Shown here: positions 2,867 through 15,907 of the stretch, in pieces | Numbering within the stretch: position 1 is the first letter of the stretch | How the letters are laid out: each line of letters opens with the position of its first letter | Assembly: GCA_038826135.1 (NCBI GenBank) | Contig: JAWBON010000019.1 | Location: 1-20,790, forward strand | DNA: 20,790 nucleotides | Direction: 5' to 3' | Source: Candidatus Odinarchaeota archaeon | GTDB taxonomy: Archaea; Asgardarchaeota; Odinarchaeia; Odinarchaeales; Odinarchaeaceae | Notes under the pieces: generated by a model | What the model was told of the DNA's origin: nothing | Database searches by the model: none | What the model saw: the letters and a program-made list of their open reading frames with translations, nothing else | Program-made: the position numbers and the translations under genes

Positions 2867-4015
2867 GTGAGCAAGGTGCTTGATTTGCCTAAAACTAGTA
2901 GAGGAGACTACAATAAGTTCTTGAAAAAAGCCTACGACGCTGAGAATAAAGCCTTCAAGCAATGGGATAAGAATAATTTTCTTAAAGCAGCAGAATTATT
3001 TAAAGACTCTGCAGAGTGGTTTGAGAAAGCTAAACAGGCAGCCACCACTATTGATGAAAAAGTGTTAACCACATCTAACTTTTTTGTAGAGTTAAGTAAC
3101 CATTACTGGGTTTCAGGTCTTAAAAAATATTCTGACGATGAAGAATACGATGACGCTGCCGAGCTTTTTAAAAAAGCCATATTAAATAAGAAGAAAGCTT
3201 TAGAGGCGGATAAAGAGGATCTTCCGTTTAGGAAAGGGTTAGCCGGACAGAAGGAGGTTAAGAGAAGAGAGTGGAGGTTATTTCAGCAATCCACTTTAAG
3301 AGAATTATACGCTTATTATTTTCTTTCCGTCGGGCTTAAAGCCGAGAAAGAGAAGAAGACTAAGATTGCATTAGAGAATTTCGAGAACGCTGCAGCAAGC
3401 TATAATCAGCAGATTAAATATTTGAAAAGTGTTAAAAAACCGTATTATCTCGTTCAACTATATCTTTTGAAAACATATCTTAAGATAGCTCAGTGTAAAA
3501 AAGAGCTGAATAAAGTGAATGAGGCTGTAAACGATTATAACCGTATAATAAGCCAGGTTGAAAAACTTGATAAGCGCCATAAAATGAGAGCTGAAGCGAT
3601 TCTAGCACTTGCAAACGCGGAGCTGGGGGAATGCTATAAGGAATTAGACAGGGAGGGTGAAGCGGTTAACTATTATTGGCGTTTCCTAGAGTGGGCTAAA
3701 AAAGTTAAACTAGACAGGGAGCAGGCTCTAGAAGTGGCCAGATGTATTTGTATAATCACAATTATAAACATTAAATTAGGGAACACCAGTGAAGTGGATA
3801 AGGCTATTAAAGAATTCAAGTCCGGTAAAATATTCGGTAAAAATATAAGAGAAGTTCAAAGAGACCCATGGTATAATCTAGCTTCCTTAATCTCAGAATA
3901 TTATAAAACCGGTGATGAAAAAATCTTTAAAGACGCTAAAGTCGTGTATGAGAAAATGATTGATAAGAAAGACAGATTCATAACAAGGTTCTTTGAGAAA
4001 ACTGAGAATATCTAA
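2867..4015 (+). CDS. TPR-like alpha-helical repeat protein, SNAP (NSF attachment protein)-like pattern
   Basis: 382 aa, Lys/Glu/Ala-rich, with recurring helical repeats (KAAELFKDSAEWFEKA, YDDAAELFKKA, ALENFENAAASY, EAVNDYNRII, ELGECYKELDREGEAVNYY). Confidence 0.75.
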   Translation: MSKVLDLPKTSRGDYNKFLKKAYDAENKAFKQWDKNNFLKAAELFKDSAEWFEKAKQAATTIDEKVLTTSNFFVELSNHYWVSGLKKYSDDEEYDDAAELFKKAILNKKKALEADKEDLPFRKGLAGQKEVKRREWRLFQQSTLRELYAYYFLSVGLKAEKEKKTKIALENFENAAASYNQQIKYLKSVKKPYYLVQLYLLKTYLKIAQCKKELNKVNEAVNDYNRIISQVEKLDKRHKMRAEAILALANAELGECYKELDREGEAVNYYWRFLEWAKKVKLDREQALEVARCICIITIINIKLGNTSEVDKAIKEFKSGKIFGKNIREVQRDPWYNLASLISEYYKTGDEKIFKDAKVVYEKMIDKKDRFITRFFEKTENI

Positions 4016-4076
4016 AGGTTTATTTAAGAAAACATATAAAATAATTATTAATCAGATTCATCCAGGATGTGTCGTT

Positions 4077-4775
4077 TTGAAAATCTTAATCACAGGAGCT
4101 ACTAGAGCTGGTAAAAGCACTTTAATAAGAACTCTGACAAACGGGAAGAGCATAAGTGTTGATAAACACGGAACCACGGTAGCGTTAGATCACGGTGTTA
4201 TAACAGTTAGAGGTATAAAACTCTACTTATTCGGTACACCCGGATTAGAGCACTTCAGTGTTTTAAGAAAGATTCTATCCGAGGGAGCGGATGGAATAAT
4301 ATTCGTAGTTGACAGTGAAGACAAGTCGAACGATAATCTTGCAAAACTCGTCTGGAGAGAGATAGCTTCACTAGCTCCAGCAGTCCCATGCATAGTCGCT
4401 GCTAATAAACAGGATAAGGCTAACGCTAGAAAACCCAGTGAATTACGCAGAGACTTGAAATTCCTCTCCGGTGTTCCCATAATCCCCACCAGCGCCAAAG
4501 ACAATTTCAATTTAAACGTGTTAGTGAACTCTATGCTAACAATATTAATAGGCGAGTTGAGCCCGCTGCTTAAAAAAATAGAGAAATACAGTGACGTGAA
4601 AGAGGGAATCAAGAAAGTCATGAACGATATGAAAATCGATTATGAGAAGATAAAATCCTATTTAAACTGGCTTGAGTACAGGGAACTTGTGGAAGTGGAT
4701 TGGGAGAAAGGCAGCTACTCTATGAGACGGGAGCTTAAAGAATTATTAGATGCTGAAAGCCCGCCTATTTTCTGA
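4077..4775 (+). CDS. Small GTPase of the MglA/CvnD-like (Ras superfamily) type with C-terminal winged-helix-like extension
   Basis: G1 GATRAGKST, switch I TTVALDHG, G3 FGTPGL, G4 NKQD, G5 SAK. Start moved from the track's 3993 to TTG 4077 (GGATGTG SD-like site just upstream, AT-rich TATA-like region 4021-4045). Confidence 0.9.
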   Translation: MKILITGATRAGKSTLIRTLTNGKSISVDKHGTTVALDHGVITVRGIKLYLFGTPGLEHFSVLRKILSEGADGIIFVVDSEDKSNDNLAKLVWREIASLAPAVPCIVAANKQDKANARKPSELRRDLKFLSGVPIIPTSAKDNFNLNVLVNSMLTILIGELSPLLKKIEKYSDVKEGIKKVMNDMKIDYEKIKSYLNWLEYRELVEVDWEKGSYSMRRELKELLDAESPPIF

Positions 4776-4786
4776 ATTTTAACGGG

Positions 4787-4803
4787 CGAAAAGTATTTAA
4801 GCA
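4787..4803 (+). promoter_or_regulatory. BRE + TATA promoter of the aro operon
   Basis: CGAAAA (4787-4792) followed by TATTTAAGCA. Implies a transcription start near 4825, ~230 nt before aroA'. Confidence 0.65.
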
Positions 4804-4849
4804 TATAACAGTTTAATCTATCAGCGTCTATTTATTAGAGGTGCAGGAT

Positions 4850-4918
4850 TTGGCGGGGTGTTGGAGGTATAACTTTTTTGGAAGATATTCAAAACCTCCT
4901 ACAGGATACTCCGCTTAA
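4850..4918 (+). CDS. Putative aromatic-rich leader peptide [22 protein letters not shown] (22 aa; 25 aa if GTG 4841 is used)
   Basis: GAGGTG SD (4838-4843), 6-nt spacer, TTG 4850, TAA 4916-4918. 6 of 22 residues are W/Y/F. Confidence 0.55.
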   Translation: MAGCWRYNFFGRYSKPPTGYSA

Positions 4919-5057
4919 ACCAGTTTTAAGCACCAGCATATTACCGGCTATAATTAAATCTTCGCTTGATTTTATGCCGTATAAGATTTTTTTAAAAGAA
5001 TCTGTTTTAGAAAACAATGTCTATATTAAAATCTTTGAAAGGGGGTTAAATAGTTGA
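4878..5057 (+). CDS. Putative 59-aa uORF ([12 protein letters not shown]...FERGLNS) of unknown function
   Basis: GGAGGT SD (4863-4868), 9-nt spacer, TTG 4878. Its TGA overlaps the aroA' TTG as TTGA. Confidence 0.45.
4945..4993 (+). terminator. Terminator-like hairpin plus T7 tract inside the aro leader
   Basis: CGGC(4945-48)/GCCG(4976-79) and AAATC(4956-60)/GATTT(4968-72) stems, then TTTTTTT at 4987-4993. Confidence 0.4.
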
Positions 5058-14125: not shown

Positions 14126-15433
14126 TTAGTCGAGTTTCAGAACCATCCTGTATCCTTCAATATCCAGCAGCCCATGCCCGCTATAGTTGAACACTATAAC
14201 TTTCTTTTCATTCCGCTTCTTAGCCTCTTTCGCAAGATCTATAGCCGCACATATAGCGTGGCTTGTCTCAGGAGCGGGAATAAGCCCCTCAGTCTCAGCG
14301 AAAAGCTTAGCACACTGATATATCTGCTCCTGCGGATAAGCGACAGATTTTATGAATCCCTCATTCCTCAACAAACTAACAGTAGGCGCTGCACCGTGAT
14401 ATCTTAACCCACCAGCGTGTATCGGAGGAGGGATAAACTCACAGCCTAAAGTGTACATTTTTATTAAAGGCGTTGTTTTAGCAGTATCACCGAAATCGTA
14501 ACGGTACTCGCCTTTTGTAAGAGACGGGCATGCTACAGGTTCAACCGCTAAAACCTCCGGGGAAGATAACTCGTTTCTAAGTATTTTACCAAGATACGGA
14601 AAACTGAACCCGGCGAAGTTACTGCCACCTCCAACACAGCCGATTAAAGAATCAGGGATAAGATCCAGCTTATTCATCTGCTCTATAAGCTCCTGACCGA
14701 TCACAGTCTGATGTAAAATAACATAGTTCAGAACACTGCCTAACGTGTACTTTGTATCCGGGTTTTTAACAGCCATCTCTATAGCTTCACTTATAGCTAT
14801 GCCTAAGGAACCTGGATGATTAGGATCCTTAGATACAAGGCTTCGACCGTAATCTGTTTTATCACTCGGAGAAGCGTAAACATCAGCCCCCAGAAGTTTC
14901 ATAATATATTTACGATACGGTTTCTGATTATACGAGCAGCGGACCATGAAAACCGTGCATTTTATACCAACCATCGCACACGCGTAAGCTAAAGCACTAC
15001 CCCATTGACCCGCCCCGGTCTCAGTGGTTAAGTTTCTCACACCCTCCTTCGCAGCATAGTATGCCTGCGCTATCGCAGTATTCGGTTTATGGCTGCCTGT
15101 CGGGGATAAATCCTCTCTTTTAAAGAATATTCTAGCAGGCGTGTTCAGTCTCTGTTCAAGTCTCTTAGCCCTGTATAGGGGGGACGGTCGACCCAGCCGG
15201 TAATAGTATTCTACCAGATCCTCAGGTATACTAATATAACGCTCCTTCGCAAGCTCCTGCTTCACACACTCCTTAGGGAAAAGATTCATCAAAGCTTCAG
15301 CTGGGATAGGCTCTTTCGAAGCAGGGTTAAGATACGGTGGAAACTCTGATCGTATATCCGCTAATATATTATACCATTTCCTAGGCAACTCATCCAATCC
15401 AAGTTGAACCTTCACATCATTCATATTAGACAT
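14126..15433 (-). CDS. trpB: Tryptophan synthase beta chain, type 2 (stand-alone TrpB2)
   Basis: 435 aa, LP.KWYNI, GSHKPNTA (PLP Lys), TETGAGQWG, GCVGGGSNFAG, PPPIHAGGLRYHG, PAPETSHAI, FNYSGHGLLD. GGAGGT SD at 15445-15440. Confidence 0.96.
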   Translation of the reverse strand: MSNMNDVKVQLGLDELPRKWYNILADIRSEFPPYLNPASKEPIPAEALMNLFPKECVKQELAKERYISIPEDLVEYYYRLGRPSPLYRAKRLEQRLNTPARIFFKREDLSPTGSHKPNTAIAQAYYAAKEGVRNLTTETGAGQWGSALAYACAMVGIKCTVFMVRCSYNQKPYRKYIMKLLGADVYASPSDKTDYGRSLVSKDPNHPGSLGIAISEAIEMAVKNPDTKYTLGSVLNYVILHQTVIGQELIEQMNKLDLIPDSLIGCVGGGSNFAGFSFPYLGKILRNELSSPEVLAVEPVACPSLTKGEYRYDFGDTAKTTPLIKMYTLGCEFIPPPIHAGGLRYHGAAPTVSLLRNEGFIKSVAYPQEQIYQCAKLFAETEGLIPAPETSHAICAAIDLAKEAKKRNEKKVIVFNYSGHGLLDIEGYRMVLKLD

Positions 15434-15503
15434 AATTCAACCTCCAAAATTTTTTAATTTTTAAAAAAATATAGAATTTATCAGCTAACCAGTGCAGTGG
15501 CTT

Positions 15504-15644
15504 CTAAGGCCACAATAACCAGCGCCAAGCCCAGATCCGGCTTAACAAAAAAGCCTCAGATGAAAAAACACTATTTAAAAACAGTTCTACTTTCAAGTAA
15601 GGGTTAACACCACTCGCGCACTGCACTGTTAAAGCTAACTCCAT
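15504..15644 (-). CDS. Putative Trp-rich leader peptide ending LLSRIWAWRWLLWP (46 aa from ATG 15644; 14 aa from TTG 15548)
   Basis: Four TGG codons at 15533, 15527, 15521 and 15512; TAG 15506-15504. In-frame starts: ATG 15644 (AAGGTG SD, 11-nt spacer), GTG 15626, TTG 15596, TTG 15548 (GAGG SD, 5-nt spacer). Confidence 0.65.
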   Translation of the reverse strand: MELALTVQCASGVNPYLKVELFLNSVFSSEAFLLSRIWAWRWLLWP

Positions 15645-15654
15645 TCCAAGGCAT
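15604..15654 (-). CDS. Putative overlapping uORF MPWNGVSFNSAVREWC (16 aa, 2 Trp)
   Basis: First ATG downstream of the trpB2 promoter, stop TAA 15606-15604. The SD is only 1 nt from the ATG, so initiation is doubtful. Confidence 0.3.
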   Translation of the reverse strand: MPWNGVSFNSAVREWC

Positions 15655-15694
15655 ACACCTTACTGAAAGATTAAAAATAAATTAAAAAATGTAG

Positions 15695-15710
15695 TATATA
15701 ATATTTTCGG
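15695..15710 (-). promoter_or_regulatory. BRE + TATA promoter for the trpB2 leader/trpB2
   Basis: CCGAAAA (15710-15704) followed by TATTATATA (15703-15695). Implies a transcription start near 15672. Confidence 0.7.
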
Positions 15711-15712
15711 TG

Positions 15713-15907
15713 TTAACTAGTTTCAAGATAGTCTTCTATAAGAATAGTTAACAATGGAATAAAACAGACAGGCAGGATCCATAAATTATCCGAAATAGTT
15801 AAAGGAATCAGTGGAAGCCTTACAAATCGTAAAATAACCGAGATTATTAGAAAAACGCTCCAACACGTTAAAATAATATAAGTATTTTTCAACTTAACCT
15901 TATCCAT
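15713..15907 (-). CDS. Small membrane protein (64 aa, about 2 TM segments)
   Basis: ATG 15907 after GGGAG. Hydrophobic stretches YIILTCWSVFLIISVIL and LWILPVCFIPLLTILI. Confidence 0.6.
   Translation of the reverse strand: MDKVKLKNTYIILTCWSVFLIISVILRFVRLPLIPLTISDNLWILPVCFIPLLTILIEDYLETS

Follow-up and report, generated by a model that had tools for sequence, protein, structure and literature searches.

A candidate tryptophan-sensing leader peptide upstream of trpB2 in Odinarchaeum and other Asgard archaea

Introduction

Attenuation by leader peptides is a bacterial mechanism known from textbooks. In the trpL attenuator of Escherichia coli and Salmonella (Rfam family RF00513), a short open reading frame (ORF) with Trp codons clustered near its stop precedes the Trp-synthesis genes, and the logic of this system requires coupling of transcription and translation, which also exists in archaea. 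The arrest peptide TnaC of the E. coli tna operon, on the other hand, possesses only one Trp residue, with which it senses free Trp, and its target for induction is a catabolic gene. Archaeal transcription is not ended by bacterial hairpin terminators but by oligo-T tracts and factors such as aCPSF1/FttA, an oligo-T tract being sufficient for termination by the archaeal RNA polymerase. To our knowledge, the only control of archaeal trp genes or trpB2 described is that by TrpY of Methanothermobacter thermautotrophicus, a protein repressor acting on DNA that regulates trpB2 in response to Trp. A full-text literature search for an archaeal leader-peptide attenuator did not return any case. Here, we describe an ORF with four clustered Trp codons in the 5' leader of trpB2, the gene of a stand-alone TrpB-like enzyme, on a 20,790-nt stretch of DNA from a Candidatus Odinarchaeota archaeon (contig JAWBON010000019.1, positions 1 to 20,790, in the following termed the window), which also occurs in hot-spring metagenomes. 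Based on comparison with the trpB2 loci of other Asgard archaea, this leader is probably a ribosome-mediated Trp sensor.

Results and Discussion

A Trp-codon ORF preceding trpB2

The minus-strand sequence in which the initial annotation had recognized a leader peptide was retrieved exactly when re-reading the window, and with it the four in-frame TGG codons within eight codons (minus strand, 15533-15510). They are located at 15533-15531, 15527-15525, 15521-15519 and 15512-15510, and the last is followed by CCT and the stop codon TAG. Trp codons are enriched near the 3' end of the ORF, accounting for four of the last nine codons, and the distance of 70 nt between TAG and the trpB2 start codon (ATG 15433) was verified. 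The ORF lies on the same strand as trpB2, between a conserved promoter element consisting of B recognition element (BRE) and TATA box (15710-15695) and the structural gene (15433), from which a single transcription unit comprising leader ORF and trpB2 can be inferred. The coordinates of these and all other features are compiled in Table 1.

Table 1. Features of the trpB2 leader region and of the candidate aro leader in the window. PLP, pyridoxal phosphate; MFE, minimum free energy fold; uORF, upstream ORF.
Feature	Position	Strand	Remarks
Leader ORF	15504..15644	-	ATG 15644, 46 codons ending WAWRWLLWP, stop TAG 15506-15504
Four TGG (Trp) codons within 8, candidate regulatory cluster	15510..15533	-	last TGG one codon before stop; all four invariant in the genus
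TTG start of 14-codon form	15546..15548	-	no ATG, GTG or TTG at the corresponding site of G001, G002 or G003
trpB2, stand-alone TrpB-like PLP enzyme, 435 aa	14126..15433	-	NF009057, 678.7 bits, E 2.9e-204; TIGR01415, 634.9 bits
Archaeal promoter	15695..15710	-	BRE-like CCGAAAA 15710-15704 and TATA TATTATATA 15703-15695; invariant in four Odinarchaeum genomes
Structured 5' leader RNA (model R1), GC island in AT-rich intergenic DNA	15484..15672	-	composition, folding, conservation
P1 long-range helix, 5' arm	15619..15639	-	inside codons 2-9 of the leader ORF; MFE and alifold; core GCAGTG/CACTGC invariant
P1 long-range helix, 3' arm	15480..15501	-	begins 2 nt past the stop codon; MFE and alifold
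Local hairpin GUGGC / loop CUUAGAA / GCCAC	15497..15513	-	last Trp codon in 5' arm, stop in loop
T7 tract, candidate archaeal intrinsic terminator	15463..15469	-	34 nt past leader stop, 29 nt before trpB2 ATG
trpB2 Shine-Dalgarno sequence GGAGG	15441..15445	-	7 nt before ATG; invariant in four genomes
Candidate aro leader	4776-5053	+	upstream of aro operon start 5054
aro leader BRE/TATA	~4777-4795	+	
aro leader GAGGTG	4839-4844	+	
aro leader uORF	TTG 4852	+	22 codons, aromatic run CWRYNFF, further Tyr codons
aro leader GGAGGU/ACCUCC hairpin, then T7 tract	T7 ~4985-4991	+	

For evaluating the ORF within the genus, four Odinarchaeum genomes were compared: G000 (this one), G001, the closed genome G002 of Ca. 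Odinarchaeum yellowstonii LCB_4, and G003. The frame starting at ATG 15644, mentioned in the initial annotation as a 46-codon possibility, is open in all four of them with a length of 45-46 codons, making this ATG the conserved start. Two independent indels, which affect different genomes and positions, both comprise 3 nt and preserve the frame. The preference initially given to a 14-codon form beginning at TTG 15548 did not hold. Although the GAGG motif (15557-15554) and the 5-nt spacer in front of this TTG are present in the sequence, a start codon is missing at the homologous place in all three sister genomes, and the likeness in length to the 14-aa TrpL of E. coli is accordingly unsupported. 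Hence, the initial idea of a Trp-codon leader peptide serving trpB2 is retained in its core, in line with the frame-keeping indels and with Trp clusters in front of trpB2 in several Asgard families (see below), whereas its short form is not.

The mean column identity of the leader amounts to 92% over the four genomes. Pairwise, it diverges by only 9-17%, as opposed to 42-58% at the fourfold-degenerate sites of trpB2, and must therefore be under strong selection. When searching the order with a model built from the four Odinarchaeum leaders (R1), one copy per Odinarchaeum genome and no second copy was found. Scanning of metagenomes for further variants of the leader yielded nothing with a first pattern, and with a second one only a tRNA-Leu(UAG) on an unrelated metagenome contig (L237, 3433-3520). 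The identity over 21 nt between its anticodon arm and the stop-codon hairpin is at a level expected by chance for that collection. The geometry of this hairpin is indeed that of an anticodon arm, with a 5-bp stem, a 7-nt loop and U at loop position 2, which is taken to be a coincidence.

Role of trpB2 in Odinarchaeum

The trpB2 product shows 90% identity to WEU40487.1 from strain LCB_4, which assigns the window to a different species of Odinarchaeum. In genome searches, TrpA (PF00290) and indole-3-glycerol phosphate synthase (PF00218) were not found in G000, G001 and the closed G002. These three of the four Odinarchaeum genomes thus appear to possess no Trp-making gene other than trpB2. Most members of the genus would appear to make Trp via TrpB2 only, presumably from external indole. 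With trpB2 as apparently sole Trp-making gene, a dedicated Trp sensor is therefore sensible. A trpEGDCFBA operon was detected only in G003 on an 8.7-kb contig (L233), where an S17e-like gene and a tRNA containing an intron lie in front of it; a Trp leader was not found upstream of this operon.

Frequency of Trp clusters in the genome

According to the initial annotation, the Trp cluster was unlikely to have arisen by chance, a claim now borne out by its rarity in the genome, its invariance in the genus and its recurrence in front of trpB2 in other Asgard families. The opposite reading, i.e., that the cluster is a meaningless product of a G-rich structured segment, can draw on the genome-wide count: at a TGG frequency of 0.0099, about 1.7 windows with at least four TGG in eight codons are expected in the six frames of the 1.26-Mb genome, and four clusters are seen. 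The one in the trpB2 leader is the only one upstream of a tryptophan gene, while the three remaining ones are found in short, unrelated frames. Likewise, the concern that such clusters might be common in front of unrelated genes did not materialize, as an upstream short ORF with at least three Trp in seven residues precedes only 3 of about 1150 long ORFs; besides trpB2, however, these are two genes without link to Trp, encoding a CPBP protease and a prenyl synthase. Against an accidental origin stand the invariance of all four codons in genomes where neutral sites are near saturation, the recurrence of clusters in other families amid unrelated flanking sequences, and the position in front of what appears to be the genome's only Trp gene. 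Judged from these sequence comparisons, chance is strongly disfavoured already and we consider it extremely unlikely.

A second member of the four clusters is also situated in the window (4477-4500, minus strand), encoding LWRWWGLW in a 26-codon frame antisense within a GTPase gene (3993-4775) and without a Trp gene downstream; it is probably due to chance. When all of G000 was scanned for short ORFs that precede a gene and are enriched in a single amino acid, 18 matches resulted, among which no further single-amino-acid leader was found. Besides trpB2, seven downstream genes were checked, all of them unrelated to the enriched amino acid (genes for a hydrolase, dihydrolipoyl dehydrogenase, MoaB, a Bud32-like protein, the CPBP protease and the prenyl synthase mentioned above, and one gene without family match).

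Trp-codon leaders in other Asgard families

The comparative set comprised 121 trpB2 upstream regions from 107 Asgardarchaeota genomes, one locus being identical to that of Ca. Borrarchaeum weybense. As had been proposed in the initial annotation, these regions were checked for Trp clusters, and 31 of them, from about seven families, were positive at a threshold of at least three in-frame TGG in ten codons on the sense strand, compared with five on the antisense strand and a flank background of 0.04 per 300 nt. Restricting the set to non-operonic trpB2 loci, 30 of 105 show an in-frame Trp cluster. In every cluster-bearing leader the last Trp codon is placed 0-3 codons before the stop. Moreover, when clusters were collected irrespective of register (four TGG within 30 nt), all four triplets fell into one frame in 16 of 21 cases, with about one expected.

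The encoded peptides are diverse, ranging from 16-17 codons with a WxWxWxW pattern to a 59-codon form ending SWHPWxSWRWQ, a 66-codon form ending GWPWRGPWQ, and others. The Odinarchaeum leader, the Borrarchaeum-type leader (59 codons) and the leader of the G007 type (66 codons) have an N-terminal motif in common (MGFALT / MAFSLE) as well as a central D/E-L-F/A-L motif in which the Leu codons differ. The motifs link the Odinarchaeum leader to these two types, and it is homologous to the Borrarchaeum-type leader. For 26 of 29 Asgard trpB2 leaders, the predictions show a hairpin whose 5' arm contains the last UGG codon or codons and whose loop (or arm) contains the stop, built from arm sequences that vary by genus (e.g., GGCGU/ACGCC, GGUCUU/AAGACC, GGCAUUGGC/GCCAAUUGC). 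In most other families, T5-T9 tracts follow 23-46 nt past the stop. Taken together, the spacing of UGG by multiples of three nucleotides, the ATG and the stop just past the last UGG point to translation of these leaders, since a repeat serving only for protein binding needs neither such spacing nor an ATG nor a stop after its last copy.

Amino-acid motifs shared by three families in different codons would also be expected if the ORF encoded a small Trp-rich protein with a function of its own, or if the leader acted as a small RNA, both without Trp sensing for trpB2. The locus has its own promoter and a T-tract able to end a short transcript, and in Sinorhizobium the leader peptide peTrpL and the small RNA rnTrpL are reported to act in trans (PMC7298713). 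Such an independent product is nevertheless quite unlikely. Within the genus, substitutions are mostly amino-acid-changing, the families differ in ORF length (16-66 codons) and have only the terminal Trp cluster universally, and in the sets examined the element is always found directly upstream of trpB2. Furthermore, a profile of the leader peptide searched against 1.84 billion proteins retrieved nothing except the Borrarchaeum-type leader itself and a 6091-aa repeat protein without real likeness.

Not all relatives bear a Trp-codon leader. Within the order, the sister family (L152, L162 and L169; genomes G004-G006) lacks the ORF in front of trpB2. About 60-110 nt upstream of the gene, TGTACA and ATGTAT boxes instead flank a TATA box, TTTAAATA. 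The TGTACA boxes, which we take to resemble the TRP-box operators of the Methanothermobacter repressor TrpY, suggest that trpB2 of this family might be under protein-based control. In the largest Asgard family sampled (L143-L191), a strongly conserved AT-rich near-palindromic box, ATTGAATTCCAAT, within GCATTAATTATATTGA..., separates the Trp leader ORF from trpB2, at a distance of about 55-80 nt from the gene; it may represent a second promoter or an operator, and control in that family may be two-layered. A scan of genome contigs with a TrpB2 alignment, leaving out the records of the own genus, gave 80 very diverse loci, where Trp clusters were found only at the Borrarchaeum locus and at a few bacterial ones. 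At two of the latter, L080 and L125, three to four Trp codons in a row (WWWW, WWW) precede trpB2 by about 200 nt, which look like ordinary bacterial trp leader peptides.

Promoter and folding of the leader RNA

As the distance between TATA box and transcription start site is usually 23-27 nt, transcription is predicted to start at about 15680-15670, i.e., about 30 nt before ATG 15644. A second promoter between leader and trpB2 was considered and rejected, as the only TATA-like T/A run sits about 22-29 nt from the trpB2 ATG, a distance too short for this role. Two sequencing runs labelled as metatranscriptomes contain this DNA; the contigs obtained from them are of low depth and probably derive from DNA, one of them spanning the promoter.

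The leader forms a GC island of about 190 nt (GC content of 0.42-0.55 versus 0.15-0.25 in the flanks) for which a very stable fold is predicted, with a minimum free energy of -68.1 kcal/mol and a z-score of -4.66 on the minus strand, compared with -2.0 on the plus strand. Over the four Odinarchaeum sequences, 96% of the alignment cells in the predicted fold are paired. Predicted elements are the long-range helix P1, which would enclose nearly the whole ORF, and, as an alternative, a local hairpin around the stop codon. According to the predictions, this hairpin (15513-15497) and P1 compete for the same GCCAC segment and are mutually exclusive. Under constraints that mimic a ribosome stalled over Trp codons one to three, P1 is predicted to persist, and with the ribosome at the stop codon it is predicted to open. 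At the place homologous to the T7 tract, a run of T6-T7 is found in all four genomes.

A stable RNA of this kind might alternatively function without translation, as a structured cis-regulatory element of about 190 nt that binds a protein or small ligand in a riboswitch- or TRAP-like manner. Frame and UGG triplets would then arise incidentally from UGG(C) motifs whose actual role is pairing with GCCA or binding of a factor. The fold stability noted above, the equal conservation of the three codon positions far above the neutral level, the occurrence of C after UGG in many families with UGGC motifs pairing with downstream GCCA, and the lack of a good Shine-Dalgarno sequence (SD) in front of the leader ORF are all in favour of this. 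What the families share, however, is not the fold but the ORF, defined by ATG, UGG spacing in multiples of three and a stop 0-3 codons on, at lengths of 16-66 codons. In addition, both indels in the genus are of 3 nt, and model R1 finds nothing outside of the genus. Searching the whole window against Rfam did not reveal any family matching the leader at gathering scores, and the four matches obtained at E<=10 within 15400-15760 are at chance level and not relevant, with no RF00513 (Trp_leader) match among them. A structured RNA acting without translation is thus held to be unlikely.

The best of the sub-threshold Rfam matches is CRISPR-DR50 (E 0.041, 26.7 bits versus a gathering score of 47), located at 15709-15755 upstream of the promoter. 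This minus-strand segment, adjoining BRE and TATA box, is made up of a 9-bp perfect inverted repeat, TGTTAACTA ... TAGTTAACA, with a 25-nt spacer. The repeat is not conserved in the other three Odinarchaeum genomes; it may be an operator or may terminate the upstream gene. With ARAGORN, no tRNA or tmRNA gene was detected in the window.

A possible mechanism of Trp sensing

In the reading that we regard as probable, the trpB2 leader is a ribosome-mediated Trp sensor working as follows. From the start site predicted above, the leader would be transcribed and its 46-codon ORF translated by a ribosome while synthesis of the leader is still in progress. By analogy with bacterial attenuators, the speed of passage over the four terminal UGG codons would report the supply of charged tRNA-Trp, and the position of the ribosome would, as predicted by folding, select the pairings around the stop codon. 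A ribosome stalled on the Trp codons might occlude the local hairpin, leaving the post-stop segment free to close P1, while a ribosome having reached the stop codon would cover this segment. As output, conditional premature termination at the T7 tract (15469-15463) seems most likely, such that more full-length trpB2 mRNA would be formed when Trp is scarce; we infer both the termination step and the direction of the response. The gating might consist in exposing the post-stop RNA to the termination machinery or hiding it therefrom. Sequestration of the trpB2 SD, as in ermC-type translational attenuation, was considered as another output and rejected, this SD being free in all predicted folds.

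Extending this to a general scheme, amino-acid genes in Asgard archaea would be subject to leader-peptide sensing in the bacterial style: a co-transcriptional ribosome reading the four Trp codons would set the fate of the nascent trpB2 transcript, with the sensor embedded in an RNA closed over a long range and with an output by factor-dependent or oligo-T termination gated by the post-stop pairing. We lean slightly towards this scheme as a whole.

Several observations weigh against ribosome-mediated sensing. Within the genus, the variable columns are evenly distributed over the codon positions (11/9/13), and most substitutions alter the amino acid, often radically; as far as can be read from this pattern, it is the RNA that is constrained, along with an open frame and the unchanged Trp codons, and not the peptide sequence. 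The leader ORF does not possess a well-placed SD, the nearest candidate being GGUG 11 nt upstream and inside a predicted hairpin. Among the four sequences, the predicted fold shows zero compensatory (double-sided) changes, its support being thermodynamic only, and by folding of the trpB2 leader no terminator/antiterminator pair was identified. The SD of trpB2 is unpaired in every predicted state. Concerning the T7 tract, T-runs are fairly common in the AT-rich intergenic DNA of this genome, with at least six T in the -70 to -12 window upstream of 6.6% of the long ORFs, and a bacterial-type hairpin adjoining it was not found. The element is lacking in the sister family, and the R1 search of the order did not give any credible match outside the genus. 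Finally, related genomes are not independent and the counts given above for Asgard families overstate independence, albeit these families differ in sequence.

Comparison with described leaders

Compared with the other Asgard trpB2 leaders, the Odinarchaeum one has in common the downstream gene, the Trp cluster 0-3 codons before the stop, the stop in a hairpin loop and the T-tract thereafter. Unlike them, it is enclosed by a long-range helix. With 46 codons it is also longer than the leaders of the largest Asgard family (16-17 codons), it is closer to trpB2 (70 nt versus about 145-196 nt), and it lacks the palindromic AT-rich box found in that family.

The closest described counterpart is trpL, with which the Odinarchaeum leader shares the short ORF in front of a Trp-synthesis gene, the clustering of Trp codons near the stop, and a U-tract between leader ORF and structural gene. 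The predicted stop-codon hairpin, which carries the last Trp codon in its 5' arm and the stop in its loop, also corresponds in layout to the 1:2 hairpin of E. coli trpL. Differences are the archaeal host, the length of 46 rather than 14 codons, and four spaced rather than two adjacent Trp codons. Besides, the Odinarchaeum ORF spans nearly the whole 190-nt structure, no hairpin adjoins the U-tract, an alternative corresponding to 2:3 / 3:4 pairing was not found, and RF00513 does not match. Likenesses to TnaC are a cis-acting leader peptide and the stop codon together with the RNA just after it as point of decision. Like TnaC, the Odinarchaeum peptide ends in Pro, a feature not shared by the other Asgard families, and loading of a factor-dependent terminator on the post-stop RNA, as in the tna system, is one possible output. 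In contrast to TnaC with its single sensing residue and catabolic target, four Trp codons precede a biosynthetic gene. From TrpY control the locus differs by the absence of a TGTACA box at the promoter and by the nature of the element, an RNA leader with an ORF. The Odinarchaeum leader is classed here as probable leader-peptide attenuation in a new domain and on a different termination machinery.

If this holds true, ribosome-mediated attenuation would be described for the first time from Archaea, and this in the lineage closest to eukaryotes. It would imply that coupled transcription and translation is used for metabolite sensing in Asgard archaea and that the logic of attenuation works with a Pol II-like archaeal polymerase terminating at oligo-T. 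Both the small ORF, which is unannotated, and the structured RNA have escaped gene callers and Rfam. For experimental tests, the Odinarchaeum case is convenient with its tiny genome, trpB2 as apparently sole Trp-making gene, a device reaching from promoter to start codon within 280 nt, and a second candidate leader with aromatic codons in the same window.

A candidate leader of the aro operon in the same window

This second leader precedes an aro operon on the plus strand, convergent to trpB2, that encodes an aldolase of the ADH-synthase type, a 3-dehydroquinate synthase II, a fusion of chorismate synthase and mutase, and a prephenate dehydrogenase. The succession of elements in front of the operon is listed in Table 1. 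If the aromatic codons of this leader had a role parallel to the Trp codons in front of trpB2, a system rather than a single case would be indicated. Length and aromatic run of the aro uORF are kept in all four Odinarchaeum genomes, while the second half of the uORF has strongly diverged.

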